Assembly (NCBI GenBank): GCA_965223265.1
Contig: OZ244999.1
Coordinates: 2,496,001 to 2,560,000, forward strand
Direction of reading: 5' to 3'
Origin: Planctomycetota bacterium
GTDB lineage: Bacteria; Planctomycetota; UBA8108; SXIK01
DNA: 64,000 nucleotides
The notes under the pieces: generated by a model
What the model saw: the letters and a program-made list of their open reading frames with translations, nothing else
Databases searched by the model: none
Told to the model about the DNA's origin: nothing
Shown here: piece by piece, positions 1,833 through 54,633 of the stretch
How the letters are laid out: each line of letters begins with the position of its first letter
How positions within the stretch are numbered: position 1 is the first letter of the stretch
Program-made: the position numbers and the translations under genes

Positions 1833-3073
1833 TCACTGAGTCTCGCTCTGCGTCGCGCACGTGCTGTGACCTATGGGTGTTCAGCCTCTTCGCCCTCGTC
1901 TTCGTGTTCGCCTCGAAGAGCCTATGGTACGACCTCAGGTTGATTCACCGCGAGCTGCTCGATCCGAGTCGTTTTCGACTCCTCTTCATCGTCTACGCTC
2001 TCCTCCTCTTACCGTTTCTTATCGTCGTGTTGTCGAGAGACGTGATCGGCGTGCTGACGAAGCGATGGAGTTGGCTGTTCGCAGCGCTAGCCTGGTACGG
2101 ACTCGTCCCCGCTCTCATCCACCGAAACGATTTGATCTACATCGCTCAAGATCTTTTCAAACTGTCGTTCGTACCGGCTGGATATCTCGCGTACCGTCTC
2201 GCCAGAGAGCGACTCGACGTGAAGAGATTCGCACTGTTTCTTGCGACTTCGGTGCTACTGTTTGAGATCGTTCGGCTCGCCATTCATGTGCTGGCGAAGG
2301 GTACGGGGACGAGGCTCGTCTACGGGACGATCATCGATGTTCTCCCGGTCGCGGCCTTTTTCGCTTTCATGTTGCATTCAACAGGTGCGAGGCGCTTCCT
2401 GTTCTTCCTGTTGACAGTTGCCAGTTTGCTCATGTCGCTGATCGGTCAGAAGCGGACTGTGCTTGCGTGCATTTGTCTCCTGGCATGCTTTTTCGTTGTC
2501 TCCACGCTTCGCAAGAATACGACGTTCGTGGTCTTTGCCGCGATCGTCACGACGTGTGCGCTCGCCGCGCTGGCGCTGGCAGGAGCTCTCAGCGGCGAAT
2601 TCGAGGTCGACGTCTTTCGTCGGCTTGCCGCAACCGACGTTCGAGCTGACATTGGCGAGTCCTCCGTGCGTTTCAAGGAGGTCAAAATCGCCATGCGGAC
2701 GCTAAAAGAAGGCGGTGTTGGCGCGCTTCTGTTCGGTTATGGGCACGGCGCCACTTTCGAGCTGTGGCATCCAGTGCGCGGCGTGGAGACGGTCCACAGC
2801 ATGCACTTCACTCCGGCGGCGATGATCTTTCGCTATGGATTCTTTGGCGTGGTTTTCTTCGCGATCCTGTTCGTGGCGATTTGGCGTCTCGTGTTGAGGC
2901 GAACGTCGATCGCCGCCTCAGCCGATGAAGCGGCCGTGACGCTTATGGGAAAAGGCTATCTTCTCAGCGCATCGATTGGCTGCTTTTTGCTCTTTGGTCT
3001 GGTGGATGATCTACTCTGCGGCGTCTTTTTGGGCGTCGTCGAGGATGGAACGCGGCGAACGGTGAGAGAGTGA
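1829..3073 (+). CDS. Wzy-like polymerase / O-antigen ligase family membrane protein
   Basis: ATG overlaps the wzx stop (ATGA). About 10 TM segments and a periplasmic loop with S.xVR...LFGYGHG...H, the Wzy_C/WaaL pattern. Confidence 0.65.
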   Translation: MITESRSASRTCCDLWVFSLFALVFVFASKSLWYDLRLIHRELLDPSRFRLLFIVYALLLLPFLIVVLSRDVIGVLTKRWSWLFAALAWYGLVPALIHRNDLIYIAQDLFKLSFVPAGYLAYRLARERLDVKRFALFLATSVLLFEIVRLAIHVLAKGTGTRLVYGTIIDVLPVAAFFAFMLHSTGARRFLFFLLTVASLLMSLIGQKRTVLACICLLACFFVVSTLRKNTTFVVFAAIVTTCALAALALAGALSGEFEVDVFRRLAATDVRADIGESSVRFKEVKIAMRTLKEGGVGALLFGYGHGATFELWHPVRGVETVHSMHFTPAAMIFRYGFFGVVFFAILFVAIWRLVLRRTSIAASADEAAVTLMGKGYLLSASIGCFLLFGLVDDLLCGVFLGVVEDGTRRTVRE

Positions 3074-3080
3074 CTCAGTA

Positions 3081-5003
3081 ATGTGTGGTATCGCCGGGTT
3101 CTATGGTTCTTTCAATGGGCAGCTGCTCGAGGCGATGAATGCCAGGACGCGCCACCGCGGCCCTGACGACGAAGGTACTCTCCATCTTGCCGATGTCGGC
3201 GTTGGTCTTGCCCACACGCGCCTGTCGATTCTCGACCTTTCGGAGCGTGGGCGACAGCCGATGTGGGACGCGACGAACTCGGTGGCGATCACGTACAACG
3301 GCGAGATCTACAACTACCGCGAGCTGCGTGAAGAGCTATCGAGCAATGGGTTCGCTTTTCGGAGCGGAACGGACACTGAGGTTCTTCTGAACCTTTACTT
3401 GAAGCACGGCGAGGAGATGCTCAGCCGGCTCAATGGCATCTTCGCGTTCGCGCTCTGGGATCGTCGTCAGCGGCGGATGCTGGCGGCGCGGGATGGTTTC
3501 GGGGTCAAGCCACTCTATTTCGCCGAAACGACGGCCGGGTTCGTGTTTGCCAGCGAGATCAAAGCGCTGCTTGAGGCGGAGTCCGTCGCGCGTGACCTCA
3601 ATCCTGCGGCGGTGCGTCACTACTTGACGTATTTGTGGTGTCCGGCGCCAGAGACGATCCTCAAGTCCGTGCGCAAGCTAGAGCCTGGACACGTGCTCAC
3701 CTTGAGTGACGGCAAAATCGTCTCATCTCGGTGTTTCTACGAGCTTCCCTACGACCAAGCGATCGCCGAGCCGTCGGTGGAGGAGGCGGCGGCGGAGCTT
3801 CGAGAGCGTCTTGAGAAGGCGGTCGAGCGACAGTTGGTTTCCGACGTGCCGGTCGGAGCGTTCCTCTCCGGTGGGCTCGACTCTAGCGCCGTGGTGGCGA
3901 TGGCGAAGCAAGCCGGCAGCGAGCGCCTGCAGTGCTTCACGATCGAGCAGAACGATCCGCGCGTCGAGGCGAGCGAAGGTCCGTCGCTTGATCTGCCGTA
4001 TGCGCGTAAGGTGGCGAGCCATCTCGATGTGGACCTCCACGTCATTACTGTCGGTCCTGAAATGACGGATCTGCTCGAGACGATGATTTATCACCTCGAC
4101 GAGCCGCAGGCCGACCTCGCCCCGATCAACGTCTACTTCATCTGCAAGTTGGCGCGTGAGCATGGCATCAAGGTGCTGCTCTCTGGTGCTGGCGGTGACG
4201 ATATCTTTTCAGGCTACCGCCGCCACTATGCGTTGGGTTTGGAAAGGTTTTGGAGCTGGATGCCGCGCTGGGCGAGGCGGTTCGTTCGCGGTGGAACGCA
4301 GTTGGTGCCGGTCTCCCACCGCGTTGGCAGGAAGCTGCGCAAGGCGTTTGAGTTTGCCGACGTCGATGTTCTCGAGCGGACGGCTGGCTATTTCTACTGG
4401 AATCATCCGGCGTTCCTCGAGACCCTTCTTGCGGACAGCGCCGCCGACGGAGACGGCACGATTGCATGCCCGCTGACGCGAGCCCTTCGACGATTGCCTG
4501 CGGAGATGCCAGCGCTCAACAAAATGCTTTATCTCGACGCCAAGTATTTCCTCGCTGACCACAACCTCAACTACACCGACAAGCTCAGCATGGCGCACGG
4601 CGTTGAGGTCCGTGTGCCACTCCTCGACCCTGACGTGGTCGCCATGGCCGCGCGCCTGCCGGTCTGGATGAAGCAGAATGGGCGGACGGGCAAGTGGATC
4701 TTTAAGAAGGCGATGGAAGCGTCGTTGCCGGAGAGTGTGATCTACCGTCCGAAAGCCGGCTTCGGAGCCCCGCTTCGCACTTGGCTCCGGGGCGAGCTGC
4801 AGCCGCTCGTCGAGGACGTGCTGTCGGAAGCGTCGCTTTCGAGGCGAGGACTCTTCGATCCGCAGGGGGTGAGACGCATGATTGAGCTCGACCGCCGTGG
4901 TGCAATGGATGCGGCCTATCCGACGCTGGCGCTGATGTCGATTGAGTTGTGGTGCCGGATCTTCCTCGACCGCCGCACCACTCCTGAATCGGCCGCCCCC
5001 TGA
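3081..5003 (+). CDS. asnB: Asparagine synthase (glutamine-hydrolysing), polysaccharide amidotransferase type
   Basis: MCGIAG Ntn N-terminus, HRGPD, RLSILDLS, NGEIYNY, SGGLDSS, LSGAGGDD, EVRVPLLD. Confidence 0.93.
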   Translation: MCGIAGFYGSFNGQLLEAMNARTRHRGPDDEGTLHLADVGVGLAHTRLSILDLSERGRQPMWDATNSVAITYNGEIYNYRELREELSSNGFAFRSGTDTEVLLNLYLKHGEEMLSRLNGIFAFALWDRRQRRMLAARDGFGVKPLYFAETTAGFVFASEIKALLEAESVARDLNPAAVRHYLTYLWCPAPETILKSVRKLEPGHVLTLSDGKIVSSRCFYELPYDQAIAEPSVEEAAAELRERLEKAVERQLVSDVPVGAFLSGGLDSSAVVAMAKQAGSERLQCFTIEQNDPRVEASEGPSLDLPYARKVASHLDVDLHVITVGPEMTDLLETMIYHLDEPQADLAPINVYFICKLAREHGIKVLLSGAGGDDIFSGYRRHYALGLERFWSWMPRWARRFVRGGTQLVPVSHRVGRKLRKAFEFADVDVLERTAGYFYWNHPAFLETLLADSAADGDGTIACPLTRALRRLPAEMPALNKMLYLDAKYFLADHNLNYTDKLSMAHGVEVRVPLLDPDVVAMAARLPVWMKQNGRTGKWIFKKAMEASLPESVIYRPKAGFGAPLRTWLRGELQPLVEDVLSEASLSRRGLFDPQGVRRMIELDRRGAMDAAYPTLALMSIELWCRIFLDRRTTPESAAP

Positions 5004-5100
5004 GAACCTCTCCGATCGAGCTGTGGTGCCGGATTTCCTCAATCGCCACACGACCCGTGGATCGATTCCGAGTGCCTCCTTCTCCTTCTTCTCCTCTCCT

Positions 5101-5117
5101 GAACCAATCCCAGGTTC
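5101..5117 (-). repeat. Single inverted copy of the array repeat downstream of the HUH gene
   Basis: Minus strand reads GAACCTGGGATTGGTTC versus consensus GAACCTGGGACAGGGTTC. It sits in a GAAGAA/GGAGAA purine tract like the array linkers. Confidence 0.6.
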
Positions 5118-5355
5118 CTTCTTCTTGTTCTTCTTGCAGGTTGGAGGAATCGGTCCGAATCCATGCCGAACAGCGCGCTTTCGACTGCGGAAGCGGCTTT
5201 CGTCACAACGACCTGCCGTCAAACGCTGTCGTTTCGACCTGCGGCGGAAGTTTTCATTCAATTGTGGCGTTTCCGCGACGTACATCGGCCACGGTTCCAA
5301 CGCGGAGTCAGAACGTTGTTCGCGGATCAAGATGCGTCGATGTCGATTCCATCCG

Positions 5356-6258
5356 CTACGGCGGCATCGGCGCGCAGCGCGCCGCGAAGTGAACACGCAT
5401 CCAGTAGGTACCGAACGGGAACAGCGCCTCGCGAAGGCCGGCGCAGAATTCCGTCAGGGCGCTACGGTACTCTCTGAGGAATCGCTTGTATTTCAGGAGT
5501 GCGTCGATGCGTCTCTCCTTGTCGCGGCATGCGAAGCGGGGATTGAGCTTTCGATACGGTTCAGCATTGCCGGGGCGAGCCAGCGGACTTTGGCGACGGA
5601 CGGCTCTGACGCCTGCGAACCGCCTGCCGCGCCGATCCATGTCGTTCCGTATGTCGGCTTCCTTCGATTCAAGATTCTTTTCCACGAGAGACGTGAGCTG
5701 TTCCTGCGAAAGTCCGGACTGAAGCGGCGGTGCTGAAATGTTTAGAGAGACGCGGTCGGGCATACTGCCATTATCTTGAAAAAAGAACGCTGGACGTATG
5801 ATCTCACGGCAAGTGCCGAAGTCCTGCGGCGATGAACGCAGGCCTGGCCACTCGTCTCCGTGAGAAACTAAACCTGCCGCCACGGGGTTGGCGAGGACGT
5901 AGACAGTCTTGTCGATCACGTCTTCTTCGCCGACGAGCGTCACTGCGCTGTACGAACCCGGTGTCCAGACGTTCTCGCGGCGCCCATAGTAGGCATTCAG
6001 CGCTCGCGCGACCAAACAGTTCAGGAGTTGAGTAAACGCAGGCAGGTTGCCAAGTCGGTCTGTGACAATCAAGTGGTAGTGGTTGCTGAGAACACAATAG
6101 CAATGGACGTCGATGAGGAAGCGTTCGGCAGCGTGCGCTAGCAGGTACAGAACAACCTGATTGACCACCTTCGACGGACGAAGGAGGAACTGCCGCTGCG
6201 CGCATCGACGCGTAACCATGTAAGTCGTCCCAGGGATAATTTGTCGTGGTGCTGTCAT
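5356..6258 (-). CDS. HUH/Y1 tyrosine transposase (REP-associated RAYT / TnpA-Y1 like)
   Basis: MTAPRQIIPGTTYMVTRRC start, HUH motif in YCVLSNHYHLIV, catalytic Tyr in VYVLANPV, W.SS-like WPGLRSS, plus a C-terminal extension of more than 100 aa. No adjacent tnpB. Confidence 0.88.
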   Translation of the reverse strand: MTAPRQIIPGTTYMVTRRCAQRQFLLRPSKVVNQVVLYLLAHAAERFLIDVHCYCVLSNHYHLIVTDRLGNLPAFTQLLNCLVARALNAYYGRRENVWTPGSYSAVTLVGEEDVIDKTVYVLANPVAAGLVSHGDEWPGLRSSPQDFGTCREIIRPAFFFQDNGSMPDRVSLNISAPPLQSGLSQEQLTSLVEKNLESKEADIRNDMDRRGRRFAGVRAVRRQSPLARPGNAEPYRKLNPRFACRDKERRIDALLKYKRFLREYRSALTEFCAGLREALFPFGTYWMRVHFAARCAPMPP

Positions 6259-6511
6259 CGTCGCCACATATAGGCAAACTACGTTCCACACACGCCAGCG
6301 GACGCAAATAAGTCGTAAGTCGTGGCACTCGTTTAGCCTTGTGGATTCAGTCGAGGCGGTCTGTCCTGTCGAGTTGTCGCGTACCTGCGACAACTGTTCG
6401 ATTCCGAGCGGTCAATCGTCACCGGTGGTTCTTTCTGGCTTTGCGTGTGAGTCTGAGATGGGTCGTCAGGATCGCTGCAAGGAAGGGACAGGGAGGCGGC
6501 AGATGGGCCAG

Positions 6512-7590
6512 GAACAAACCTGGGACGGGGAGAAGGAAGAGAAGAAAAGAAGGAAGAAGGAGAAAAGAAGAACGAACCTGGGACAGGGCTCGGGAAACCA
6601 AAACGAACCTGGGACAGTTCGAGGTTCGAGGTTCGCGGGGGCTCGGGAAACCCGTGGGTGAAGAACGAACCTGGGAAGGGAAGGACGGAAGGACGGGCGG
6701 CCTGAGGAACCTGGGACAGGATTCGGCGAACCTAAAAAGAGAGGAAGAAGGAGAAAAGAAGAACGAACCTGGGACAGGGTTCGAAAAGAACGAACCTGAG
6801 ACAGGGTTCGGTCCGGGGCTCGGGGTTCCGGGAAACCAAAACGAACCTGGGACAGGGTTCGAACCTATGGGTGAAGAACGAACCTGGGACAGGGAAGGAC
6901 GGAAGGACGTGGGTGAAGAACGAACCTGGGACAGGGTTCGAACCTATGGGTGAAGAACGAACCTGGGACAGGATTCGGCGAACCTAAAAAGAGAGGAAGA
7001 AGGAGAAAAGAAGAACGAACCTGGGACAGGGTTCGGTCCGGGGCTCGGGGTTCGCGAGAAACCAAAACGAACCTGGGACAGGGTTCGAACCTAAAAGAAC
7101 GAACCTGGGACAGGGTTCGGTGGTTCGGTCCGGGGCTCGGGGTTCCGGGAAACCAAAACGAACCTGGGACAGTTCGGGGTTCGCGCGGGGTTCCGGGAAA
7201 CCAAAACGAACCTGGGACAGGGTTCGAACCTATGGGTGAAGAACGAACCTGGGACAGGGAAGGACGGAAGGACGTGGGTGAAGAACGAACCTGGGACAGG
7301 GTTCGAACCTATGGGTGAAGAACGAACCTGGGACAGGATTCGGCGAACCTAAAAAGAGAGGAAGAAGGAGAAAAGAAGAACGAACCTGGGACAGGGTTCG
7401 GTCCGGGGCTCGGGGTTCGCGAGAAACCAAAACGAACCTGGGACAGGGTTCGAACCTAAAAGAACGAACCTGGGACAGGGTTCGGTGGTTCGGTCCGGGG
7501 CTCGGGGTTCCGGGAAACCAAAACGAACCTGGGACAGTTCGGGGTTCGCGGGGTTCGCGAGAAACCAAAACGAACCTGGGACAGGGTTCG
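6512..7590 (+). repeat. Array of ~24 direct repeats (G/A)AACGAACCTGGGACAG(GGTTCG) with recurring linkers
   Basis: Counted ~24 copies, e.g. 6570, 6761, 6876, 6918, 7013, 7097, 7241, 7283, 7378, 7462, 7569. Many form a CGAACC-TGGGACAG-GGTTCG hairpin. Includes a 365-bp tandem duplication (6821-7185 / 7186-7550). Confidence 0.95.
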
Positions 7591-7683
7591 GGCCGAGAGT
7601 GTCCTTCCGGCAAGCCTGCATGATCACGGGGGAGAATTTCGATATCGTCAGCGGTCCAACCCAATCCAAAAGGAGGACCGCCG

Positions 7684-8085
7684 ATGCCCCGCAGAGCCGA
7701 ACCGACACCTCGCCGACTTGAGACCGCACGCCTGCGCTTCGAGGAGTGGCGCGCCGAGCGCAAGCGTGGAGCGCGCATTCCGAAACGACTCTGGTCGCAG
7801 GCGGTCGAGCTTGCGAAAGAGTTTGGACTGCACCGCACCTCACGCGCTCTGGGGGTCGATTACGCGACATTGAAAAGACGAGCAGGCGCAGTCGGTGAAC
7901 CAGTCGTCGAGACACGGGAGCGCGGCGGCTTCGTCGAAGTCGCCGTGCCTCCCGCCGCTACACCTGGCTGCTGCACCATCGAGATCGAAGACGTCACAGG
8001 CCAGCGGATGCGCTTCAAGCTCCCGAGCATCGATCCGGCGACACTCACTTCCATCGCTCGTGCATTCCTTCGAAGCGAGTCATGA
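7684..8085 (+). CDS. tnpA: IS66 accessory protein TnpA-like (HTH)
   Basis: AGGAGG RBS; HTH-like IPKRLWSQAVELA...ALGVDYATLKRR, then FVEV...IEIE; overlaps the tnpB start. Confidence 0.75.
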   Translation: MPRRAEPTPRRLETARLRFEEWRAERKRGARIPKRLWSQAVELAKEFGLHRTSRALGVDYATLKRRAGAVGEPVVETRERGGFVEVAVPPAATPGCCTIEIEDVTGQRMRFKLPSIDPATLTSIARAFLRSES

Positions 8086-8441
8086 TCCAAGTCACTCCAC
8101 AGATGCGGATCCTGGTGGCGGTCGAGCCGGCGGACTTCCGTAAGGGCATCGACGGTCTGGTGAGGATCTGCCGAGAGGAGCTTCCCGCCGATCCGTTCTC
8201 CGGCACTGTGTTCGTCTTCCGTAACCGGCGCCGGACGTCGATCAAAGTCGTCGTTTACGACGGCCAAGGATTTTGGCTCTGCCAGAAACGCCTGTCGACA
8301 GGACGTTTTCGCTTTTGGCCGAACTCTTCAGAGAAGAGTCGGCAGCTCGAAGCGCACGAGCTCCAGATGCTTCTCAGTGCTGGGAATCCAGAAGCCGGCG
8401 CGGCTCCAGAGCCGTGGAGAAGCGTCTGTGTGGCCGTCTGA
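8082..8441 (+). CDS. tnpB: IS66 accessory protein TnpB (Orf2)
   Basis: DFRKGIDGL, VFVFRNRRR, YDGQGFWLCQKRL..GRF: IS66 Orf2 signature. Confidence 0.92.
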   Translation: MIQVTPQMRILVAVEPADFRKGIDGLVRICREELPADPFSGTVFVFRNRRRTSIKVVVYDGQGFWLCQKRLSTGRFRFWPNSSEKSRQLEAHELQMLLSAGNPEAGAAPEPWRSVCVAV

Positions 8442-8520
8442 TTTTTTTGAAAGAAACACTAGATTTTTGCGTTCCGCATCGCTACGCTCCAGCGTGCTAC
8501 CTCAGAGAGCATGACTGGAA

Positions 8521-10155
8521 GTGACGAAGAAACCTGAGCGAATCGATATCACCGAAGAGGAGCTCGAGGCGCTTGTTGAGCGCGTTGAGTCCGATCGCCT
8601 TGAGCCCGGCGACTACGAGGTGATCAAAGCGATGGCGGAGACGATTGCGTATCTCAGCCAAGCGATCGACCAAAAGGGCGTTCAGCTCAGGCGTCTTCTG
8701 CGCACGCTCTTTGGTTCTGGGAGCGAGAAGAGAGCGGAGGTTTTTGCTGAAGCGCTCGCCCGTGAGTCAGAGCAGTCAAGCTCGCCCGAGCCGGGAGAAG
8801 AAAGCGCAACTTCCGAAGCGGCGAGCGAGTCGGAAGCGACGGGCCATGGGCGTCGCGCCGCCAGCGAGTACACGGGCGCAGAGACGGTCGAGGTAAAGTT
8901 CGCGGGTCTCAGCTCGGGCGATCCCTGCCCAAAGTGCCCGAGCGGGAAAGTTTACGAACTGCCGGTTCTCGGCACGATCGTTCGAGTGAAAGGAACGACA
9001 CCGTTCGAAGCGACGGTGTACCGCCTTGAGAAGCTGCGCTGTAATCTCTGCGGCGAGATCTTCACCGCGGAGCCTCCCGCCGGAGTCGGCACAGAGAAGT
9101 ACGACGAGTCAGTGGTGAGTCTCCTTGCCGTACTGAAGTATGGCACCGGGATGCCCTTTTACCGACTTGAGAAGCTGCAGGAGTCACTCGGCGTGCCGCT
9201 ACCGTCCTCGACGCAGTGGGACATACTGAGTGGAGCGCTCAAGAGGATCGAGCCCGCTTATGACGAACTTTTCCGTCAGGCGGCACAGGGTGAAGTGATC
9301 CACAACGACGACACGACGGTGAAGATCCTGGAGCTCATGGGTAAACGGCGGGAGAATCTTCGCGATCCTCCGGAGCGTACGGGCATGTTCACAACGGGGC
9401 TAATATCGAAGAGGGAGTCACGAACGATTGCGCTTTTCTTCTCGGGATCGGACCACGCTGGTGAGAACCTGGAGAAGCTGCTGACGCTGCGGCAATCAAG
9501 CAGCGATCCGCCGATCCAGATGTGTGATGGTCTTGACCACAATCAACCAGCGGGGAAAGAGACCATCGTCGCCAATTGCCTCTCGCATGGTCGCCGCCGA
9601 TTCCTGGAAGTGATCGAGAACTTTCCCGCCGAAGTGCGCCATCTCATCGACGTGCTCGCCGAAGTGTACAAGGTCGACGGGCGAGCTCGCGCTGAAGCGC
9701 TCAGCGCGGAGGCGCGTCTTGAGCTTCACCAGAAGGAGAGTGCGCCGCTGATGGCGGACCTCCAGGAGTGGCTCGCGGCGCAGCTGAGCGAGAAGCGAGT
9801 CGAACCGAACTCGACTCTCGGTGAGGCGATCCAGTACATGCTGAAGCGCTGGGATGCGCTGACGCTGTTCCTCAGAAAACCCGGCGCCCCGCTCGATAAT
9901 AATATCTGTGAGCGCGGACTGAAGAAGGCGATCCTTAACCGGAAGAACTCGCTCTTCTTCAAGACGCGTCACGGCGCTCGCGTCGGTGATCTCTTCCTCA
10001 GCCTCATCCACACCGCCGAGCTCGCCGGCGCCAACCCGTTCGAGTACCTGAGCGCACTGCAAAGGAACTCAAAGATCGTCTCGAAGAAGCCACGCGACTG
10101 GATGCCGTGGAACTATCTTGAGACGCTCAAGAGCTCGGCGCCAACGACCCAGTAG
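8521..10155 (+). CDS. tnpC: IS66 DDE transposase TnpC
   Basis: LFGSGSEK, zinc finger CPKC...CNLC, HNDDTT, CDG, NCLSHGRRRF, LDNNICERGLK, NPFEYL. Confidence 0.92.
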   Translation: MTKKPERIDITEEELEALVERVESDRLEPGDYEVIKAMAETIAYLSQAIDQKGVQLRRLLRTLFGSGSEKRAEVFAEALARESEQSSSPEPGEESATSEAASESEATGHGRRAASEYTGAETVEVKFAGLSSGDPCPKCPSGKVYELPVLGTIVRVKGTTPFEATVYRLEKLRCNLCGEIFTAEPPAGVGTEKYDESVVSLLAVLKYGTGMPFYRLEKLQESLGVPLPSSTQWDILSGALKRIEPAYDELFRQAAQGEVIHNDDTTVKILELMGKRRENLRDPPERTGMFTTGLISKRESRTIALFFSGSDHAGENLEKLLTLRQSSSDPPIQMCDGLDHNQPAGKETIVANCLSHGRRRFLEVIENFPAEVRHLIDVLAEVYKVDGRARAEALSAEARLELHQKESAPLMADLQEWLAAQLSEKRVEPNSTLGEAIQYMLKRWDALTLFLRKPGAPLDNNICERGLKKAILNRKNSLFFKTRHGARVGDLFLSLIHTAELAGANPFEYLSALQRNSKIVSKKPRDWMPWNYLETLKSSAPTTQ

Positions 10156-10396
10156 CTTCGAGTGCGAACCGTCTCGTAACTGGGCCGGGAAGGCGCAACT
10201 CATCAGATTGGCGCTTTCCGGCCCCGCCGAACTTCCGGTGCGTCACGTGTCGGATAATTGCTCGGCGCGCGGCTGTCGGTGCGCCTCAACTCCGACCGCT
10301 CCGGGTGGGTGCTGCCAATTTTGCACGCCTGCCGGAAGGACACGGCCGAGACGGGGAGAGGGGAGGACGAAACGGGCGCGACTGGCGCAGGCGCGA

Positions 10397-10804
10397 CTAC
10401 TTCTCCTCAGCGGTCTGTTTGACCACCTTGCACGGGACGCCGTACGCGACGCAGTTGGCCGGGATGTCCTTGTTGACAAGGCTCATTGCGCCAACGACCG
10501 CGTTTTCGCCGACGGTGACGCCCGGGAGAATGACGCTGTGGCTGCCGATCTTGCAGTTTCTCTTGAGGTGGACAGGGCCTTCCTTCTCGTCGATCGTCGA
10601 CACGGTGTACACCGAGCAGTGCGAGCCGATCTGTACCTCGTCCTCGATAATGACACCGAACTTGGCGTTGATGTACGTGAACGCACCAATGTCGGTTCGG
10701 TGGCCGAGCTCGAGTCCGTCCTTGTTTTGCACCAACCAGTTGTACTTGGTGAGCTCACCTTCCTCGATCGCCGGCGGCTTCCAATCTGCGAACCTGTCGG
10801 TCAT
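10397..10804 (-). CDS. Hexapeptide-repeat (LbH) sugar acyltransferase
   Basis: VILPGVTVGENAVVGAMSLVNKDIP...GVPCK. The ATG at 10804 overlaps the upstream stop; the longer ORF start (11059) lies inside the upstream gene. Confidence 0.85.
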   Translation of the reverse strand: MTDRFADWKPPAIEEGELTKYNWLVQNKDGLELGHRTDIGAFTYINAKFGVIIEDEVQIGSHCSVYTVSTIDEKEGPVHLKRNCKIGSHSVILPGVTVGENAVVGAMSLVNKDIPANCVAYGVPCKVVKQTAEEK

Positions 10805-11457
10805 TCGCTCTGCGCCTCCTGCTGCGGGCGCTCCGTCCCTCTTCCGCTGTCGCTCGCGGTGCTCCCGGCCACGGTACCGGTGAACTTCGGCATGGTCGCG
10901 TGACCGGGCGCGTTGATCGCCCGCGGCCTGACGATCTGGCCGACCGTCCGGAAGAGGATTCTTACATCCAACCAAAACGATTGGTTTTGCACATACCACA
11001 CGTCGAGTTCGAACTTCTCCTCCCACGAACGAGAGTTTCGCCCATTGATCTGCGCCCACCCGGTGATCCCCGGTTTGACGTCATGGCGGCGTGCTTGCTC
11101 TGGAGAGTAGAGGGGGAGGTACTCCATGAGGAGCGGCCGCGGGCCGACCAGGCTGAGCTCACCTTTCACCACGTTCCACAGCGCCGGTAGCTCGTCCAAG
11201 CTTGTCTTACGCAAAAAGCTTCCGTAGCCCGTCAAGCGCTCGGCATCGGGGAGCGGATGGCCAGCGCCATCGCACGCGTTCGTCATGGTACGAAACTTGA
11301 TCATGAGGAACGGTTCTCCATGGAGGCCAGGGCGCTCCTGGCGAAAGAATACCGGCGAACCAAGGAGGATGCGATTCAACATCGCGATCACGAGCAGCAC
11401 GGGCGACAGCAGGATCAGCCCGAGACTCGCCGCGACGAAATCAACGCACCGTTTCAT
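10801..11457 (-). CDS. Undecaprenyl-phosphate sugar phosphotransferase (PglC-like)
   Basis: MKR..D, FFRQERPG, KFRTM, LRKTSLDELP, SLVGPRP, VKPGITGWAQINGRN, ELDVWY. Confidence 0.92.
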   Translation of the reverse strand: MKRCVDFVAASLGLILLSPVLLVIAMLNRILLGSPVFFRQERPGLHGEPFLMIKFRTMTNACDGAGHPLPDAERLTGYGSFLRKTSLDELPALWNVVKGELSLVGPRPLLMEYLPLYSPEQARRHDVKPGITGWAQINGRNSRSWEEKFELDVWYVQNQSFWLDVRILFRTVGQIVRPRAINAPGHATMPKFTGTVAGSTASDSGRGTERPQQEAQSE

Positions 11458-18669: not shown

Positions 18670-18754
18670 ACGCCCACGCCCACGCCCCACGCAAACGCCC
18701 ACGCCCACGCAAACGCGAACGCCCACGCAAACGCAAACGCAAACGCAAACGCGA
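18670..18754 (+). repeat. Hexamer tandem repeat (ACGCCC/ACGCAA/ACGCGA) x14
   Basis: Fourteen ACGC(C/A/G)(C/A) units read directly; one unit has an extra C. Confidence 0.9.
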
Positions 18755-18763
18755 ATAAGACCG

Positions 18764-18794
18764 GACGGCACACGGCGTGTGCCTGCTACTTTTT
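18764..18794 (-). repeat. GTAG-type REP element
   Basis: Minus strand AAAAAGTAGCAGGCACACGCCGTGTGCCGTC: GTAG tag plus GGCACAC-GCC-GTGTGCC palindrome; near-identical to 16019-16049. Confidence 0.7.
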
Positions 18795-18806
18795 GAGAGG
18801 CTTTCT

Positions 18807-19604
18807 GTGAAACTCGCTACACTTTTTGTTGCTCTCGCTCTGCTCCCGATCGCGGCGCCGCGACAGCAGCAGGCACGACTCGTTGAAACGCAGCCGCTGA
18901 AAGAGGGCGCCGCTTCGCAGGGGGTGGCGCTCGCCAAGGATTTCTACTACGGATCAACGAGTCGGACGATTTGCCGCTTTGACACGGACTGGAAGTTCAT
19001 CGAGCAGAAAACGATCCAGGTTGCAGGCGTGAATCACATCGGTGCGATTCACTATGACGCAGGGTTCCTCTGGGTCGGGCTGCTGCATGGTCCCGTGAAA
19101 GGAAAACACGACCCGAAGCTCGACCGCGCGATCGTCGCTAAGGTCCGCGCGCGCGATCTCGAAGTCGTCGACGCGTGGGATCTGTCCAAGGACGTCACCT
19201 GGATCGATCCGGTCTGTTTTGCCGCGAAACGTCTCTGGGTGGGGGATCTCAGCGACCTGGGCATTCACCGCTACAAGCTCGTCGATGGCGAGCTCGTTCG
19301 CGACGGTATCTTTCGTTACCCGAAAGCCATGCACTTCTCGCAAGGCATTCGCATTGTCGGGGACAAGCTTTACAGCACTCACACGTTCGGTACGATGGAC
19401 GGTCTCTTCGAGTTTCAGCTTCCCGCCAAGCTCGACGGCAGCATCCAACAGCCGCGCCGCGTCTGGCCGATCCAGGAGAGGCGTTCGCACCTCGAGGGCT
19501 TCGCCTTCGTACCCGGCCGACCGAACGAGATTTGGCACGCACAGGGGAGCGAAGTCGACCGCTACGTGCTCGAGGGGCTCAAAGCTGACGACCGTCAGCG
19601 GTGA
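18807..19604 (+). CDS. Secreted hypothetical protein, probable beta-propeller
   Basis: GTG start with signal peptide MKLATLFVALALLPIAA; short beta-strand repeats (ASQGVAL, NHIGAIHY, FSQGIRI, HLEGFAF). Confidence 0.65.
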   Translation: MKLATLFVALALLPIAAPRQQQARLVETQPLKEGAASQGVALAKDFYYGSTSRTICRFDTDWKFIEQKTIQVAGVNHIGAIHYDAGFLWVGLLHGPVKGKHDPKLDRAIVAKVRARDLEVVDAWDLSKDVTWIDPVCFAAKRLWVGDLSDLGIHRYKLVDGELVRDGIFRYPKAMHFSQGIRIVGDKLYSTHTFGTMDGLFEFQLPAKLDGSIQQPRRVWPIQERRSHLEGFAFVPGRPNEIWHAQGSEVDRYVLEGLKADDRQR

Positions 19605-19714
19605 TGCGTCGCAGCTAGTGAGCGCTCGGCGACTGCGATTCAAGGCTCGGCCTCGTCCGCGGCGATGCATTCATATGGTGGCGATCCCTGACGCCGCCGC
19701 GACGACCCGTGGGT

Positions 19715-21283
19715 TCAACGACTCGCGCGAACGGCATGGTCCAGCCGTGGGTGGCCGCCGTCATCTCGACCGTTCCAGCCAAAGCTGTAAAGGATGTAGC
19801 CCGCGCCGACTCTTCGGTAGACGAGATCGCCTCCAGTGCGTTCCTTTGGCACGGCTTTCATGTGGTCCGGGACCAGATCACTCAGACTTTCAGGGTACTC
19901 GCCAGTCTCGACACGGTGGAGCGTCAGCAGAATCGCGGTGCGGACGATTCTTAGCTGTGTCTCCGAATCCAGAGCACATTTGATTAGGTTTTGTGCTGAT
20001 GGGCTCGAGCAAAAGTCCAGATAGTCGTCCAAGCACTGGGCTGGCGGCGACAGAAAAACACGCTTCAGCTCCGACGACGCCTGCCGTAGCCAAGCCCAGG
20101 TCTCGCTCGATCTTTCGAACTCCACGGCTCGGAGCCACTGAGCAGAAAGGTCTGACCCCTCAAGCATCGAGGCTACATCGTCGTAGGCTCGGTTCACTCG
20201 AGCGAGACAGCGGTTTGCATCGATGTCGTCGATCGTCAACTGCGCGAAGACTGAGTCCGCGGGATCTGACGCATCCACATTAAACGCGGAGTGGACGTCT
20301 CCCGTGCGCAGGAAGTTCTGGATCGAGTCGAGGTTTGTGTAGCGATCAACTTCTAGCGCCCAAGCCGAATCGGTTTGTGGAAGAGCGTCGAGGTCAGCAA
20401 GCAGTTGATGGAGCCGGCGCGGCTCTCTCGGCAGAGCGTTTGCCGCAGCGAGCTTGAGCCTGAGTCCGTGGTTCTCGTGCGCGATCCCAAGAATGAACCC
20501 CAACCATGTTCCCTGTGTCCCGACAAATCGTCCCAGGCGCACGACGCCGAGCGCGCGCCGCCATGCGCCGCGGAAGTCGCCGCAGCCGAGTTCGAGAAAG
20601 CCTTGGCGAACTAAAAGCCTCGCGCTGTGGTACAGCGAAAGAGAGTTCATCGACAGGTACACGCTCGTCAAGCCTTCGGCGTGGTTCGGCGGGATGCGCG
20701 GTATGAAGAACGCGGGTCGTTCGCTGGCCATCTGCAGGAGCGGAATAGCGAATTCATTTTCCTGCAGCCAGGCGTAGACGAGAGGAAATTCGTCTGGAGT
20801 CCATGGCCGCTCGGATGCGACGTCGCATTGGAGATCGAACAGCTCCTTGGCTTCCGGGCCGCGCTGTTTGTCCAGACGAGACGAGTAGCGGAATTCACCG
20901 ACCACGTACCGCCCGTCCTCGCGCAGCTCGCCGAGCCCAAGCGCCTCGAGGACGCGGCGGTTTCCGCTGACGAACTCCGGCCCGAACGCAGTGATCATCG
21001 GAATGGCGCCGTTCGTCTCATGCGTCACGCCGCGACCGATCTTCTCGTTGATCGCCGTGACGTAGTCGATTGTGCCGTCCGGATAGCGGGGTTCGAGGAG
21101 GTACGTCGTCTGGCGCGAGTAGATGAGCTCCATCGATCGAGGAGCCGCAGCGATCGTCCAGAGCGCGATCGCGCCAGAGACGGCCAAGGCGCATGCGGTG
21201 CCGTAGAGCAATCTACGGGTGATCCGATGGCGTCCGAGAGGCTGCGTCCGGGTCGTTTGCATTGCGGCGAACTCCTCTGCCAT
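19715..21283 (-). CDS. Membrane-anchored helical hypothetical protein with a GspG-like C-terminal motif
   Basis: N-terminal TM, DGTIDYVTAIN, C-terminal GEYPESLSDLVP...YILYSFGWNGRDDGG. Confidence 0.65.
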   Translation of the reverse strand: MAEEFAAMQTTRTQPLGRHRITRRLLYGTACALAVSGAIALWTIAAAPRSMELIYSRQTTYLLEPRYPDGTIDYVTAINEKIGRGVTHETNGAIPMITAFGPEFVSGNRRVLEALGLGELREDGRYVVGEFRYSSRLDKQRGPEAKELFDLQCDVASERPWTPDEFPLVYAWLQENEFAIPLLQMASERPAFFIPRIPPNHAEGLTSVYLSMNSLSLYHSARLLVRQGFLELGCGDFRGAWRRALGVVRLGRFVGTQGTWLGFILGIAHENHGLRLKLAAANALPREPRRLHQLLADLDALPQTDSAWALEVDRYTNLDSIQNFLRTGDVHSAFNVDASDPADSVFAQLTIDDIDANRCLARVNRAYDDVASMLEGSDLSAQWLRAVEFERSSETWAWLRQASSELKRVFLSPPAQCLDDYLDFCSSPSAQNLIKCALDSETQLRIVRTAILLTLHRVETGEYPESLSDLVPDHMKAVPKERTGGDLVYRRVGAGYILYSFGWNGRDDGGHPRLDHAVRASR

Positions 21284-32549: not shown

Positions 32550-35051
32550 CTAGTGATTGAGCGCGAACTCAAGCGAGTTGAGTAGGCTCCACGCTAAATC
32601 CACCGCGGCTTGCCGTCGCCGCGAGCGATGAGAGCTGAGATGCTTCGCGGCGAACTCCTGCTCTTCCGCGGTGGGATATCGATTGTAGAAACTGAGATAA
32701 ACTTCAGTCACGAGTTTGGCGTCGTCCCGGATCTCGCGTTCGAGGCGAGCTACGGTGCCGCCGTCGTGGACGAGCTTGTTGTGGATGAGTGGCGAGTTCA
32801 TCAGGTGAAGGACCTGCGCAACGTTGGGCTCGCTCACCCGTTCGCATTCGCAAGCGCTCTTGCGAATGGGGCGCCCGAAGAGATCCAAAAAGTCGTGTTC
32901 GACCTGACTGTCCCAGAGGGCGATGGCTCGCTGGCCGTACGGCACGCCGCCGAATTTTTCGGGCACGCCGGTGACCTGGCACACCGCATCGAGGAGAACT
33001 TCCGCTTCGAGCGGTTTGAGAAGGGCGCGAGAGTAGTTTTGCTCGTCGTTTTGGTTCGTCGCGTTTGGTGTTGATGAAAGACCGTAGACGCGTGACGCGG
33101 TGATGGTACGAATCAGTGCCCGCAGATCGAAGCCGCTCTCAACGAAGTAAGCTGCGAGCGCATCATGCAGCTCGGCGTTACTGGGTGGGTTCGTGGCGCG
33201 AAAGTCGTCGACTGGCTCGACAAGACCGCGGCCCATGAAGTGCGCCCAGACGCGATTCGTCAGGTTGTGCGCAAACCACGGATTTTTTGCCGCGGTCAGC
33301 CAGTCGGCAAGAACGAGCCGACGGTCGCCGCTCGGCGCTGCGCTCGGCATGCTCGTACCGAGCGCGTGGGCGTAAACGACCTTGCCACTGCGTGGGTGCT
33401 TGGTCTCGGGATTGCCAGCGGCCATGAGAAACTCGCCGCGTGGCGACTTCTTCGTCTCGAGCTGCGTGAAGAAATCCACCATGCCATAGTAGTCAGTCTG
33501 ACTCCAACGATCGTAGGGATGATGGTGGCACTCAGCGCAGTCGATCCGTAGTCCCAGGAACACCTGGGAAACCGTGGTGGCGCGCGCGCCTGGTTTTTCG
33601 ACGACGCGAAAGAGGCTTCCCTGGGGCGCCTCGTCGAGAGGGCCTTCTGCCGTCAGGATTTCGTAGACGAATCGATCCAGCGGCTTGTTCTCGGCGAGAC
33701 TGTCGCGGATCCAGCGGTAGTATTCGTAGGCGCCTTTATGTCCGAGGACGTCACGATCAACGCGCAGGCGGTCGGCCCACTTGAGAGCCCAATACGTCGC
33801 ATATTCCGGGCGCTCGAAGAGAGCCTCCACCAAGCGCGCTCGCTTGTCGGACGCCTTGTCGGCGATGAAGCGCCGGGTCTCGTCCACCGTCGGCAGAGTG
33901 CCAATCACATCGAGAAAGACGCGGCGGAGAAAATCAGCGTCGCTGGCTGGCCCTGACGGGACGACATTCAGCTTGCGCAGTTTCGCGTAGACCAGCTCGT
34001 CGATGAAATTGTTGGCGACAAGCTGCGGGTAGTCGTCAATCGTTTCCGCACGGGGTATCAGGGCGCGAAAAGTATTCACCGCGCCATGAAAGTTCGCCAT
34101 GATGGCGACCTGGCCGGGGATGCTCCCGACGGTCACAAGACCGAACTCGTCGACCGAAGCCAGCCCTTCATTGTTCGATTGATACTTGGCGAGCGGCGTC
34201 ACGTCGACCTCATGCCCGTCGCTGTAGGTGGCGACGACGCGCAGCTGCTGCGTGCTCTTCATGCGCAAACGGCGTTCACCCGGCGTCACGACGATGCCGC
34301 GGACCGTCGGCGCGTCGTCGCGTCCATACGGGACGCCTGCACGCATCCAACCGCGCAGCGTCTGGTATGCCCACGAGTCGACCTCAAAGCGCCGCCCGCC
34401 ACCGTGAGGAATCTGGTTCGTGGCTTTGCGCAGAAGGAGGCTAAGGTCCGGGGCGGCGAACGAGACGCGTCGGCCCCGGGCGTCAGCGACGAGCTCGTCG
34501 TAGTCGGCGGCGGCGTCAAAGCCAAACACCGAGAGCTGAAAGCCGTTCTGGCCGCCGTTGGCCTTGGCGTGGCAACCGGAGCCGTTGCAGCCGAAGCGCG
34601 TCATGATCGGCAGAACGTCATTCTCAAAATGAAACTCCCTGGGGCGGTCGAAATCTCTCACCTCAACGGCAACCTCGACGCTGCGTCCAGCAGCTTCGAC
34701 TTCGATGGCGGCGGACCCGGCAGCGACCGCGCTCACGACCCCGCGCTCGGAGACGAGCGCGATCTCAGGGTGTCGTGAGCGGAACCGAGCCTCGTGGGTG
34801 AGATCAAACTCGGGCAATAACTCCTCGGGCAATAACTCACCGCCGTCGGGGGCCTTCGCGGCTCGGCCGTGGACGAGAATCGAGTAGGTTTCGGTGGCGC
34901 CGCGCAGAATGATCGACCGCGGCGAGACTCGGATTTCGGTTTCTCCGGCTGCGGCCGTGACCTCGGAACCGTGGACACTGCGGTCGGCTGGGGTGCTCAG
35001 GGCCCCGAGAAGCGACAGGCAGAGAATCGCTAGAAACAGCAAACAGCTCAT
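32550..35051 (-). CDS. DUF1549/DUF1553 (PSD1) protein with Ig-like domains
   Basis: FENDVLP...GCNGSGCH, NNFIDELV, FLRRVFLDVIGTLPT, CAECHHHPYD, NRVWAHFMGRGLVEPVDD, LLNSLEF. Confidence 0.9.
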   Translation of the reverse strand: MSCLLFLAILCLSLLGALSTPADRSVHGSEVTAAAGETEIRVSPRSIILRGATETYSILVHGRAAKAPDGGELLPEELLPEFDLTHEARFRSRHPEIALVSERGVVSAVAAGSAAIEVEAAGRSVEVAVEVRDFDRPREFHFENDVLPIMTRFGCNGSGCHAKANGGQNGFQLSVFGFDAAADYDELVADARGRRVSFAAPDLSLLLRKATNQIPHGGGRRFEVDSWAYQTLRGWMRAGVPYGRDDAPTVRGIVVTPGERRLRMKSTQQLRVVATYSDGHEVDVTPLAKYQSNNEGLASVDEFGLVTVGSIPGQVAIMANFHGAVNTFRALIPRAETIDDYPQLVANNFIDELVYAKLRKLNVVPSGPASDADFLRRVFLDVIGTLPTVDETRRFIADKASDKRARLVEALFERPEYATYWALKWADRLRVDRDVLGHKGAYEYYRWIRDSLAENKPLDRFVYEILTAEGPLDEAPQGSLFRVVEKPGARATTVSQVFLGLRIDCAECHHHPYDRWSQTDYYGMVDFFTQLETKKSPRGEFLMAAGNPETKHPRSGKVVYAHALGTSMPSAAPSGDRRLVLADWLTAAKNPWFAHNLTNRVWAHFMGRGLVEPVDDFRATNPPSNAELHDALAAYFVESGFDLRALIRTITASRVYGLSSTPNATNQNDEQNYSRALLKPLEAEVLLDAVCQVTGVPEKFGGVPYGQRAIALWDSQVEHDFLDLFGRPIRKSACECERVSEPNVAQVLHLMNSPLIHNKLVHDGGTVARLEREIRDDAKLVTEVYLSFYNRYPTAEEQEFAAKHLSSHRSRRRQAAVDLAWSLLNSLEFALNH

Positions 35052-38506: not shown

Positions 38507-39511
38507 ATGGCCTCGATTCAGTTCGGAGTGTCGGCCTTGGTGATCGTCACCTGCGGCGTCGCGCTGACGCGTTTTGCTGACGCGATGGCGAGCCACACCC
38601 GGCTGGGACGACTCTGGATCGGAACACTGTTTCTCGCTGCTGCTACGTCGCTGCCAGAGCTTTCAGTCGACATCGCGGCTGCGCGGCGTGGTCTCCCGGA
38701 TGTCGCCGTGGGAGATCTGCTGGGGAGCAGCCTCTTCAATCTCCTGATTCTCGCAGTGCTCGATCTCTCTCGTCTGGCGCGCGGTCACCTGCTGTCGCGA
38801 GCGGCGTCGGCGCACGCTCTCGCCGGAGTCGTGGGGATTGTCCTGATCGCATTGGCCGCCGGCTCGATCCTCCTTGGGTCACTCGCAAATGTCGGGTCGA
38901 TTGGCTGGGGCAGCTTGGCGATCGCTGCTGCGTACATGCTGTGTGTGCGTCTCGTCTACTGCGACCAGATATGGACTGCTGGTGCCAACGGTGGGGCGCT
39001 TGAGGCTAAACGGCCATCGCCGAGCCGGCTCTCACTTCGACAGGCGGTGCTTGGATTCTCGTTGACAGCCGGTGGGATCCTCGTCGCCGGGCCTGTTCTC
39101 GCCTCCTCGGCTGGGGAGTTGGCAGAACAAACGGGATTGGGCGACACGTTCGTAGGTACGACCCTCGTCGCTCTCGCAACGTCGCTCCCCGAACTCGTCA
39201 CGACGCTCACCGCGTTGCGCATTGGTGCGATCGATTTGGCCGTTGGTAATATCTATGGCAGCAACGCCCTAAATGTGTTTCTTCTCGCCGTGGTCGACTT
39301 TGCCTATGAAAAGCCTCTGCTATCTGTGGTTTCCTCGCTCCACGTTTTCACTTGCCTGGCCACAGTCATTATGACGGGTATCGCTGTCCTCTCGCAGCTT
39401 GCGCATATGGATGGACGTGGACGCGCCGTGAAGCCAGGTGCATGGCTGATCATCGCGCTCGCTCTCGGTGCCCTTGGCGTGATCTATTCTCTACGTGACG
39501 GGCTCTCATGA
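38507..39511 (+). CDS. Sodium:calcium antiporter (CaCA/YrbG family)
   Basis: Two alpha repeats ATSLPEL...GDLLGSSLFN and ATSLPEL...GNIYGSNALN. Confidence 0.9.
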   Translation: MASIQFGVSALVIVTCGVALTRFADAMASHTRLGRLWIGTLFLAAATSLPELSVDIAAARRGLPDVAVGDLLGSSLFNLLILAVLDLSRLARGHLLSRAASAHALAGVVGIVLIALAAGSILLGSLANVGSIGWGSLAIAAAYMLCVRLVYCDQIWTAGANGGALEAKRPSPSRLSLRQAVLGFSLTAGGILVAGPVLASSAGELAEQTGLGDTFVGTTLVALATSLPELVTTLTALRIGAIDLAVGNIYGSNALNVFLLAVVDFAYEKPLLSVVSSLHVFTCLATVIMTGIAVLSQLAHMDGRGRAVKPGAWLIIALALGALGVIYSLRDGLS

Positions 39512-40326
39512 CGACACCCCGCTCTACCGCACTGAAGCTCCGCTCAACGATCGTCGAGCCTCACAGGTTGAGTCGCGAGGACGTGCTGGGAGTTCTCGGA
39601 AGTGATCAACAAGTAGGCTTAACAGTCGCCGAAGCACAGCAGCGTGTCAAAGAGTGCGGCTGGAACGAGATCGCTACCGCGCCGCCGATCCCATTGTGGC
39701 GGAAGTTCGCTGCACAGTTCCGAGAGTTGGTGATCTGGATTCTCATCGTCGCGGCCCTTCTCTTCGGTGTTCTCGGTGATTGGCCCGATGCGCTCGCCAT
39801 TCTGACGATCGTCGTCCTGAACGCGTTTCTCGGTTTTCTTCAGCAGGAACGGGCAGAGCGTTCTCTCAACGCTCTGAGGAAACTCTCGGCGCCGCAAGCC
39901 AAGTCAATTCGCGGTGGTTTGCTGCAGGTCGTGCCGACTAGAGAGTTGGTGCCTGGGGATGTGATCGAGCTCGAGGCTGGCGATCACATTCCCGCCAACG
40001 CTCGAATTCTTGAGTCGTATGAACTCAAGGCGCAGGAGGCATCGCTGACAGGCGAATCCGTGGCAGCGAGCAAAGACCATCGAGCTCTCCTAGCCGGCGA
40101 CGCGGCAATAGGAGACCGCGTCAACATGGTGCACTTCGGCACGATCGTCGCAGCAGGCAAGGCAAGAGCGGTCGTTGTCCGCACGGGCATGGAAATCGAG
40201 CTCGGGCAGATTGCCGGGATGCTTCAAAGCTACGACCGTGAGCCAACTCCCCTGCAGCGTCGACTGCGGCAACTCGGAAGGCTCTCGTTTGGGACGGCGA
40301 CAGCGACTGTGGCATCGATCGGATGA
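39508..40326 (+). pseudogene. Truncated cation (Ca2+-type) P-type ATPase: N-domain, TM1-2 and actuator only
   Basis: GLT..EA..R...GWNEI, ELVPGD, EASLTGES, TGM..ELGQI, TPLQRRL, then a stop at 272 aa. No PEGL, DKTGT or GDGVND downstream. Confidence 0.8.
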
Positions 40327-54433: not shown

Positions 54434-54633
54434 CTGTTCTCTCCTGATCCAGTTTGTGTCGGCCTGAGAGCAGCTTGCCAGAGTCGCCCGCTGTCTCGAA
54501 TCAAAAATTCGTGTCATTTTCGCACGCAGCCCTGATGGCCGCAGTTTTTACCCGCCGAAAGGGTGGCACGCTGGACACAGGCTTGCCGGCCTGGACCTTA
54601 CGGGCTAACGTCATGAGAGGAGAAACGAGCTCA

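Follow-up and report, generated by a model that had tools for sequence, protein, structure and literature searches.

Among the systems described so far, those closest in kind to the locus reported here are the TIRtrons, in which genes resembling those of REP-associated tyrosine transposases (RAYTs; REP, repetitive extragenic palindromic sequence) are flanked by terminal inverted repeats (TIRs) and not by GTAG-type REPs, the genes themselves being termed 'TIRYT' (Di Nocera et al., 2013; PMC3733652). This source and the classification by Quentin et al. (2018; PMC6006769) are cited here and below for those of their parts that were accessible to us. Many of the TIRs of TIRYT genes carry the motif GGGGWSAS, at similar distances from the gene, and some of them are arranged as dimers or clusters and make up families of moderate abundance (PMC3733652). 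Of 26 TIRYTs, 20 are assigned to subclass 2.1, whose proteins have a median of 238 amino acids (aa) and a C-terminus of the helix-turn-helix (HTH) type (Quentin et al., 2018; PMC6006769). According to the accessible parts of the papers that use the term, this TIR-flanked branch has not been studied biochemically. By what means Y1 nucleases of the RAYT kind, members of the HUH (histidine-hydrophobic residue-histidine) enzymes, disperse their cognate repeats and bring them into clusters is not yet understood. Here we describe a gene for a 300-aa Y1 HUH protein and the repeat array next to it, located on a stretch of 64,000 nucleotides (nt) of a Planctomycetota bacterium (assembly GCA_965223265.1, contig OZ244999.1, positions 2,496,001 to 2,560,000 of the forward strand), which was analysed as a whole and is called the window below. 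We consider it likely that the locus is a TIR-bounded Y1 element, similar to a TIRtron, one terminus of which has been amplified.

The element measures ~1.5 kb and is bounded by TIRs of ~19-24 nt with the core AACCTGGGAC, and the 1.08-kb array is its left terminus, copied head-to-tail 24 times. Its parts are as follows, in coordinates of the window:

5101..5126, minus strand: right terminal inverted repeat, a single copy; the minus strand reads AAGAAGAAGGAACCTGGGATTGGTTC, outward from the gene, and matches the array core with 2 mismatches
5356..6258, minus strand: gene for the 300-aa Y1 HUH nuclease/transposase, assigned by profile, fold and conserved residues
6259..6510, no strand assigned: spacer from the start codon to the innermost left-end copy, by sequence reading
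6511..6568, plus strand: innermost left-end copy, degenerate (AAACCTGGGACGG), followed by a purine-rich tail; by core match and unit reading
6569..7590, plus strand: 23 more head-to-tail copies of the left terminus with ~7 filler types; by core matches, Tandem Repeats Finder (TRF) and unit reading

The array (6511-7590 on the plus strand, 1080 nt) consists of 24 head-to-tail copies of A[A/G]AACGAACCTGGGACAG, and the 16-mer AACGAACCTGGGACAG occurs in it 20 times without mismatch. When up to two mismatches are allowed, GAACCTGGGACAG is matched 26 times in the window, while 100 dinucleotide shuffles gave a mean of 1.52 matches, a maximum of 7 and no case that reached 26. Twenty-four of these matches lie on the plus strand at 6516-7584 and one on the minus strand at 5105-5117; the last one, at 25805 inside an open reading frame (ORF) with a BNR domain, we take as chance. 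Within the right end, 5108-5126 forms a 19-nt inverted repeat with 6565-6583 (95% complementarity), which takes in the AAGAAGAA context. Owing to this inverted arrangement of its ends, the element presents one single-strand motif (5' to 3') on opposite strands, reading outward on both sides. The first-pass annotation, made from the sequence alone, had described an array of ~24 copies, one inverted copy in the same sequence context and an HUH/Y1 gene, all of which hold, as does the purine bias that it had pointed out (68.9% purine over the array). The innermost, degenerate copy is probably the original left terminus, and its purine-rich tail resembles the tails that lie beyond the right end and beyond the outer edge of the array. 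The spacer presumably holds the promoter and the 5' untranslated region of the gene; a scan of 4900-7700, spacer included, found no sigma-70-like promoter.

The units of the array are 24-62 nt long, lengths that are not multiples of 3. Each is built from a conserved head, followed by one of ~7 recurring filler types, which are either fragments of the 3' part of the motif (GGTTCG, GGGGCTC, GGGGTTCC) or purine-rich tracts. According to TRF, the array has a higher-order period of 365 bp (2.1 copies, 99%). The two blocks concerned, 6838-7202 (units 8-15) and 7203-7566 (units 16-23), show four aligned differences, and the duplication that produced them is very recent. The block ahead of this pair is an older, diverged version, with 208 of 369 columns identical. 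Two other readings of the repeat were rejected: a protein-coding repeat, as the ORFs of the array keep no constant frame and neither the unit lengths nor the 365-bp period are multiples of 3, and a G-quadruplex function, as the whole array holds one canonical G4 motif.

In its general layout the locus agrees with a TIRtron, the Y1 gene being enclosed by inverted repeats, and this layout is family-wide (see below). The window motif TGGGACAG fits seven of the eight positions of GGGGWSAS, the consensus to which the GGGG(A/T)CA-type motif named in the first-pass annotation corresponds (PMC3733652); the array contains no exact GGGGWSAS and 21 copies of GGGWSAS. The protein differs from the TIRYTs of subclass 2.1 in its length of 300 aa and in a C-terminal domain that has no match in Pfam, whereas theirs is of the HTH type (PMC6006769). 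Compared by description, the 300-aa family, with its motifs NHYH, W followed by T/A/S, and YVLANP, fits none of the subclass consensuses in the accessible parts of PMC6006769 exactly. A strictly head-to-tail array of 24 copies at one end is likewise not mentioned in the accessible parts of the TIRtron description (PMC3733652). Neither the 300-aa family nor head-to-tail terminal arrays were found in searches of the literature on TIRYTs and TIRtrons, on TnpAY1 proteins and REPtrons since 2018, and on tyrosine transposases of Anaeromyxobacter and Planctomycetes.

Eighty homologue loci with 43-55% identity to the 300-aa protein, and up to 10 kb of flank each, were collected in a search seeded with an alignment of 14 sequences. 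Most of them are from Anaeromyxobacteraceae, with a few metagenome-assembled genomes (MAGs) of Planctomycetota, Acidobacteriota or Polyangia. In k-mer counts, repeated words adjoin many of the homologue genes, and the words found upstream are the reverse complement of those found downstream. A 12-nt regular expression, [CA][TC][CT]T[GC]GG[TA]C[N]GG (consensus yCTsGGwCnGG), covers the homologue words as well as the window core. Its density within 2 kb of the gene amounts to 0.88 matches per kb for the sense strand downstream and 0.59 for the antisense strand upstream, compared with 0-0.054 per kb in all other bins and strands and a first-order Markov expectation of 0.019 per kb per strand. The motif copies on both sides of the homologue genes always read outward from the gene. 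An outward copy is present within 1 kb upstream at 55 of the 76 loci with at least 400 nt upstream, and within 1 kb downstream at 52 of the 76 with at least 400 nt downstream; on at least one side it is found at 68 of 80 loci and on both at 42 of 80. The first-pass annotation had proposed that the repeats point outward and are linked to the gene, and had suggested the flanks of homologues as the place to look; the fixed distances and common orientation of the homologue motifs bear this out. The innermost copies lie at a median of 107 nt before the start codon and 239 nt after the stop codon. In the window, the inverted copy begins 240 nt past the stop codon, which identifies it as the canonical right end.

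The motif variants also follow the protein tree. Position 5 of the motif requires 6 changes on the tree (300 shuffles: mean 20.0, minimum 14), and positions 2-3 require 2, against 5.9 when shuffled. This agreement shows joint inheritance of the gene and its ends.

The amplification of a terminus is not restricted to the window. At least two outward copies in the same orientation are present at one end in 38 of the 80 loci and at least three in 19; arrays of three or more were seen upstream at 7 of 76 loci and downstream at 15 of 76, attached to element ends on either side of the gene. The largest arrays among the homologues comprise 11 (locus L009), 9 (L016) and 7 copies (L007), and the 24 copies of the window form the largest among the 81 loci examined. 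The homologue arrays are likewise made of whole units of ~24 nt, arranged head-to-tail with variable fillers between them, which are partial motif copies or include 57-80 nt of inner sequence of the element. Among 72 pairs of successive copies, which usually have a whole unit of ~24 nt in common, the exact match most often begins 6 nt ahead of the core (16 pairs) and, counted from the start of the core, most often extends to 17-18 nt (32 pairs). Judged from the sequences of these loci, outward amplification of the terminus is a recurrent property of the family.

The protein itself contains the HUH motif as H60-Y-H62 (within NHYH) and the catalytic tyrosine Y120 in the motif YVLANP (Y---NP); an alignment of 37 sequences shows H60, H62, Y120, N124 and P125 to be invariant or almost invariant. 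The NCBIfam profile REP_Tyr_transpos matches residues 5-138 (E 2.5e-16, 59.9 bits, below its 80-bit cut-off) and Pfam Y1_Tnp reaches E 0.042 (14.4 bits, below its cut-off of 23). Given these scores below the curated cut-offs, the protein is a distant relative of the profiled families and not an equivalog. A sequence search of the PDB gave nothing significant (best E 0.69). For an AlphaFold2 model built from 37 sequences (predicted local distance difference test 95.7, predicted template modelling score 0.93), the best PDB fold match in Foldseek is 4er8_A, the TnpAREP of E. coli in complex with a REP hairpin (E 2.8e-7, target-normalised TM score 0.68, 138 columns), followed by chains of the ISDra2 and IS608 transposases (E 2.7e-5 to 8.2e-4). 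The profile, the fold and the intact catalytic residues support assignment of the gene product to the RAYT/TnpAREP kind of Y1 HUH nucleases, in line with the RAYT-like assignment made earlier.

The HUH core (approximately residues 1-140) is followed by a conserved C-terminal domain of ~160 aa. This had previously been described as a long extension, which is real; it is no feature particular to this gene, the domain being conserved throughout the full-length family. A total of 2735 proteins match at E ≤0.001, with alignments that span 96-100% of the query among the 120 matches listed, and an exhaustive search yields 812 clusters (50% identity) at E ≤1e-30, nearly all of them ~300 aa long and matched end to end. 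The gene belongs to a large uncharacterised family of 300-aa Y1 HUH proteins, which combines a conserved terminal motif with a conserved C-terminal domain. For the C-terminal ~160 aa there was no match to a Pfam family and no PDB fold match outside the HUH core, and the ESM Atlas returned only unnamed Myxococcota clusters (0.86-0.89, under the lead level of 0.9). The source contig carries three paralogues of the protein (77, 77 and 65% identity). Among the 72,556 plasmids of PLSDB, seven records match, none of which covers at least 80% of the protein; the matches concern the HUH core alone, at 26-32% identity.

Elements of this family have recently been mobile in relatives of the window's element: one MAG contains four element copies with 96-97% nucleotide identity, from about -130 (the upstream motif) to +130...+480. 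The flanks of homologues also contain left and right ends without a gene between them, either back to back or 25-170 nt apart, which resemble miniature inverted-repeat transposable elements (MITEs) or REPINs (paired REPs in inverted orientation). Such pairs are located at 17373-17410 in L071, 7844-7957 in L054, 5412-5592 in L022, 9781-10030 and 12817-12915 in L023, and 7104-7421 in L033. The pair in L071 is a nearly perfect palindrome of both ends, and the one in L033 holds a copy of the gene that is truncated after the first codons. In L006, the element is bordered on each side, exactly where it ends, by a 34-bp direct repeat (~9840-9875 and 11170-11205), which looks like a very long target duplication; a flanking repeat of this type was not found in the 39 other loci tested.

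Two of the Planctomycetota homologue loci have further features. L078, from a MAG, contains copies or fragments of the gene at 3-614, 4389-4607, 6440-7324 and 9043-9345, all within 17 kb, and the regular expression finds nothing beside them. In L036, tandem repeats of 126 nt (378 nt) with 6-15 copies, which are probably coding repeats, lie near the homologue at 2143-4067, 6706-7501 and 19227-20139.

With regard to other Y1 systems, the element shares with the insertion sequences (ISs) of the IS200/IS605 group (IS608, ISDra2) the HUH/Y1 fold, its nature as a small mobile element and the lack of a regular target duplication among the loci compared. IS200-type proteins are ~150 aa long, with a Y---Q motif and small subterminal hairpins (PMC6006769, Table 1), whereas the window element has inverted ends and its protein has Y---NP and 300 aa. 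TnpAY1 proteins of class 3 occur in Planctomycetes, Acidobacteria and Proteobacteria, carry a W[TA] motif and atypical flanking repeats, and unite features of ISs and REPtrons; their tyrosine motif is Y----Q, their median length is 178 aa, and the foot of their hairpins is CnGA (PMC6006769). The window family resembles them in host phyla and in W[TA]; it differs in Y---NP and a protein of 300 aa, and the CnGA foot, as given in the accessible parts of that source, was not seen in the window.

The first-pass annotation had also regarded the hairpin of the repeats as the recognised feature, which our data do not support. Thirteen of the 24 array units contain the CGAACC-N8-GGTTCG hairpin in perfect form, and 16 a version with at least 5 bp. 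A typical unit folds as single-stranded DNA at -6.7 kcal/mol (z -3.07) and the right-end copy at -3.1 kcal/mol (z -1.19). In the homologue units that were folded (L009 and L013) no hairpin forms over the core (z -0.49 and +1.34), and by inspection of the aligned ends the stem positions are not complementary in the homologue motif. We therefore read the hairpin as a lineage-specific trait of the window's terminus and not as a conserved recognition element. On the strand of the gene, 15 array units resemble weak terminators in that they match a loosely defined pattern (6-bp stem and T-rich tail), with 19 such sites region-wide against 4.0 ± 2.1 in shuffled sequence. It may be speculated that the terminator-like units insulate the gene from the converging hexapeptide-transferase gene beyond the array; relatives without the hairpin cannot share this effect.

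Four alternatives to an amplified element terminus were considered. According to the first, the array would have grown as solo-end or miniature elements inserted precisely, one after another, beside an existing end, each insertion recreating the target site, with no duplication in place. The insertion site of IS200/IS605 elements is on the 3' side of a short target of fixed sequence, which is TTAC for IS608, and many Anaeromyxobacter units start with TTAC. Whole units of ~24 nt recur with a modal boundary, and gene-less miniature derivatives are present in relatives, both in favour of this process. However, the array of the window contains no inverted pair of a left and a right end, its copies being all on one strand, the junctions vary and the fillers consist of partial motif fragments, and the 365-bp block with its four differences was duplicated in place. 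We consider this alternative unlikely.

A second alternative is a domesticated REP/RAYT system (REPtron), in which REP hairpins are spread genome-wide by a single-copy, immobile RAYT and the array would be a cluster beside the gene, similar to a bacterial interspersed mosaic element (BIME). It has in its favour the best family and fold matches (REP_Tyr_transpos and the E. coli TnpAREP, PDB 4ER8), inverted cognate repeats on either side of the gene, the 6-bp hairpin in about half of the units and the resemblance of the gene-less inverted pairs to REPINs. The protein moreover bears Y---NP, the tyrosine motif of class 2 (TnpAREP-like) TnpAY1 proteins (PMC6006769, Table 1), and REP clusters with tandem units and variable pieces of flanking DNA have been described, to which the tandem repeats of the window with their bits of flanking DNA are comparable (PMC3733652). 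In contrast to REPs, the hairpin is weak, and its foot is AACGAACC and not GT[AG]G, a motif found five times in the array, always in fillers; the 24 copies are head-to-tail and not alternating. Both the missing GTAG tag and the uniform orientation had been recognised earlier. The core of the units in L009 and L013 does without a hairpin, the other 62 kb of the window contain no further copy save the one chance-like match, and the motif density in the distal flanks of homologues is approximately that of chance, apart from a few inverted pairs. While a REPtron typically has one gene copy, the present family is multi-copy, with the nearly identical, recently mobile copies in a relative and the paralogues in the source genome, and its proteins have the extra C-terminal domain. 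Taken together, a REPtron is an improbable reading of the locus.

Thirdly, the array could be next to the gene by coincidence, either as a common satellite prone to slippage or as an artefact of the assembly. Near-identical blocks of 365 bp are of the type that assemblers miscount, and the stutter-like fillers point to slippage. However, the same kind of array recurs at homologue ends in independent assemblies, the single inverted copy is at the canonical distance of the family, the last unit is adjoined by an IS66 element that is flanked cleanly by an 8-bp duplication, and the array lies within a contig of 9,179,496 bp, which makes this reading very unlikely. Finally, a CRISPR-like or other RNA-producing repeat-spacer locus, served by the HUH gene and processed into structured RNAs, has in its favour the repeat-plus-filler layout, the short hairpin and the strong strand asymmetry; the first-pass annotation had spoken of a CRISPR-shaped but cas-free locus that may give rise to structured RNAs. 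This reading is hardly credible in view of irregularly spaced units with ~7 recurring motif-fragment fillers in place of unique spacers, no cas family in Pfam scans of the window's large ORFs, a sole chance-level match in Rfam (mir-2241, E 0.54), no sigma-70-like promoter in the region scanned, and arrays in relatives that sit at element ends on either side.

Several observations weigh against the interpretation as a TIR-bounded element with an amplified terminus. The left end of the window's element is 258 nt from the start codon and not ~107 nt, and similar gaps occur only in L036 (222 nt) and L075 (230 nt). These two loci, of which L036 is from a Planctomycetota MAG, do have in common the motif variant AACCTGGG, and the match of relatives with this variant to the window core counts in favour of the interpretation. 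Twelve of the 80 homologue loci have no match to the regular expression on either side, some of them being short contigs or having variant motifs, such as the left end of L006. The agreement of motif variants with the protein tree may reflect shared descent of gene and ends only and not co-evolution, which the tree result alone does not show because relatives share labels. At 37 of the 39 loci with both ends, the longest word shared by the flanks is at most 9 nt, the 95th percentile of the control, and a regular target duplication is not seen; the longer shared words of the other two (13 and 11 nt) lie away from the ends, and no empty site or duplication fixes the exact ends. The stutter-like filler fragments with variable junctions fit slippage as well as, or better than, precise joins made by the enzyme. 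In addition, the motif census of the source genome is limited to the 64-kb window, and the loci compared have at most 55% identity, with the flanks of the paralogues outside the comparison.

For the amplified terminus of a TIR-bounded element, we tentatively propose the following route. The Y1 enzyme, whose activity is predicted, would nick at its terminus and thereby turn this site into a hot spot for duplication. Further copies could then result from strand exchange, performed by the enzyme, between equally oriented copies of sister strands, or from template switching while the nick is repaired. Unequal recombination or slippage would afterwards duplicate larger blocks. The whole-unit periodicity favours strand exchange, whereas the stutter-like fillers and variable junctions favour template switching, and the two cannot be separated by sequence alone. 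Most likely, the array has no function for the host and arises incidentally as the transposase acts.

A more specific and rather doubtful possibility is that the family recognises a linear (non-hairpin), G-rich terminus of ~24 nt on opposite strands and that the enzyme itself would expand it head-to-tail by site-specific strand exchange. If so, the arrays would be enzyme-written records of transposase activity and a tractable model for the growth of REP/BIME-type clusters, which is an unsolved question. The family provides a substrate, the 24-nt single-strand motif, and a read-out, the length of the array, for tests of the mechanism. For annotation, it follows that purine-rich 'repeat-spacer' arrays beside hypothetical 300-aa genes are to be regarded as transposon ends and not as new CRISPR-like loci.

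At its outer edge the array is followed by two further features:

7599..10343, plus strand: complete IS66-family element (Pfam TnpB_IS66, E 2.9e-30; DDE_Tnp_IS66, E 7.2e-52), with a tnpA-like ORF at 7684-8085, TnpB_IS66 at 8082-8441 and DDE_Tnp_IS66 at 8521-10155
10352..10396, plus strand: original outer flank of the array, a purine-rich tail followed by the 3' end of the hexapeptide-transferase gene; by sequence reading

The IS66 element has perfect inverted ends of 14 nt and is flanked by an 8-bp target duplication, GGCCGAGA, at 7591-7598 and 10344-10351. It was inserted 1 nt past the last array unit and is a later insertion outside the system of Y1 gene and repeats. When it is excised in silico, the last unit joins the purine-rich tail and the 3' end of the transferase gene, so the array ends naturally at 7590.

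The Y1 element is located between asnB (3081-5003, plus strand; Asn_synthase, E 1.2e-93) and the hexapeptide-transferase gene (10397-11059, minus strand), both of which belong to a polysaccharide-synthesis cluster. The last 45-65 nt of asnB (4939-4980) recur in degenerate form at 5013-5055 (22 nt at 91%, extending further), past the asnB stop codon and before the right end of the element. This repeat may be a relic of the arrival of the element, or of a terminal amplification that carried flanking DNA.

Elsewhere in the window, a tandem repeat of the hexamers ACGCCC/ACGCAA with ~10-14 copies lies at 18670-18752, just upstream of an ORF at 18777-19604. A 272-aa ORF at 39508-40326 contains the N-terminal part of a P-type (E1-E2) ATPase alone and may be a truncated gene; it is immediately followed, at 40409, by a gene for a PEP-utilising enzyme. 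Genes of the PSCyt1/PSCyt2/PSD1 and DUF1501 types, which are typical of Planctomycetes and point to this group as the host, are present at 32550-35051 and 54454-59138.

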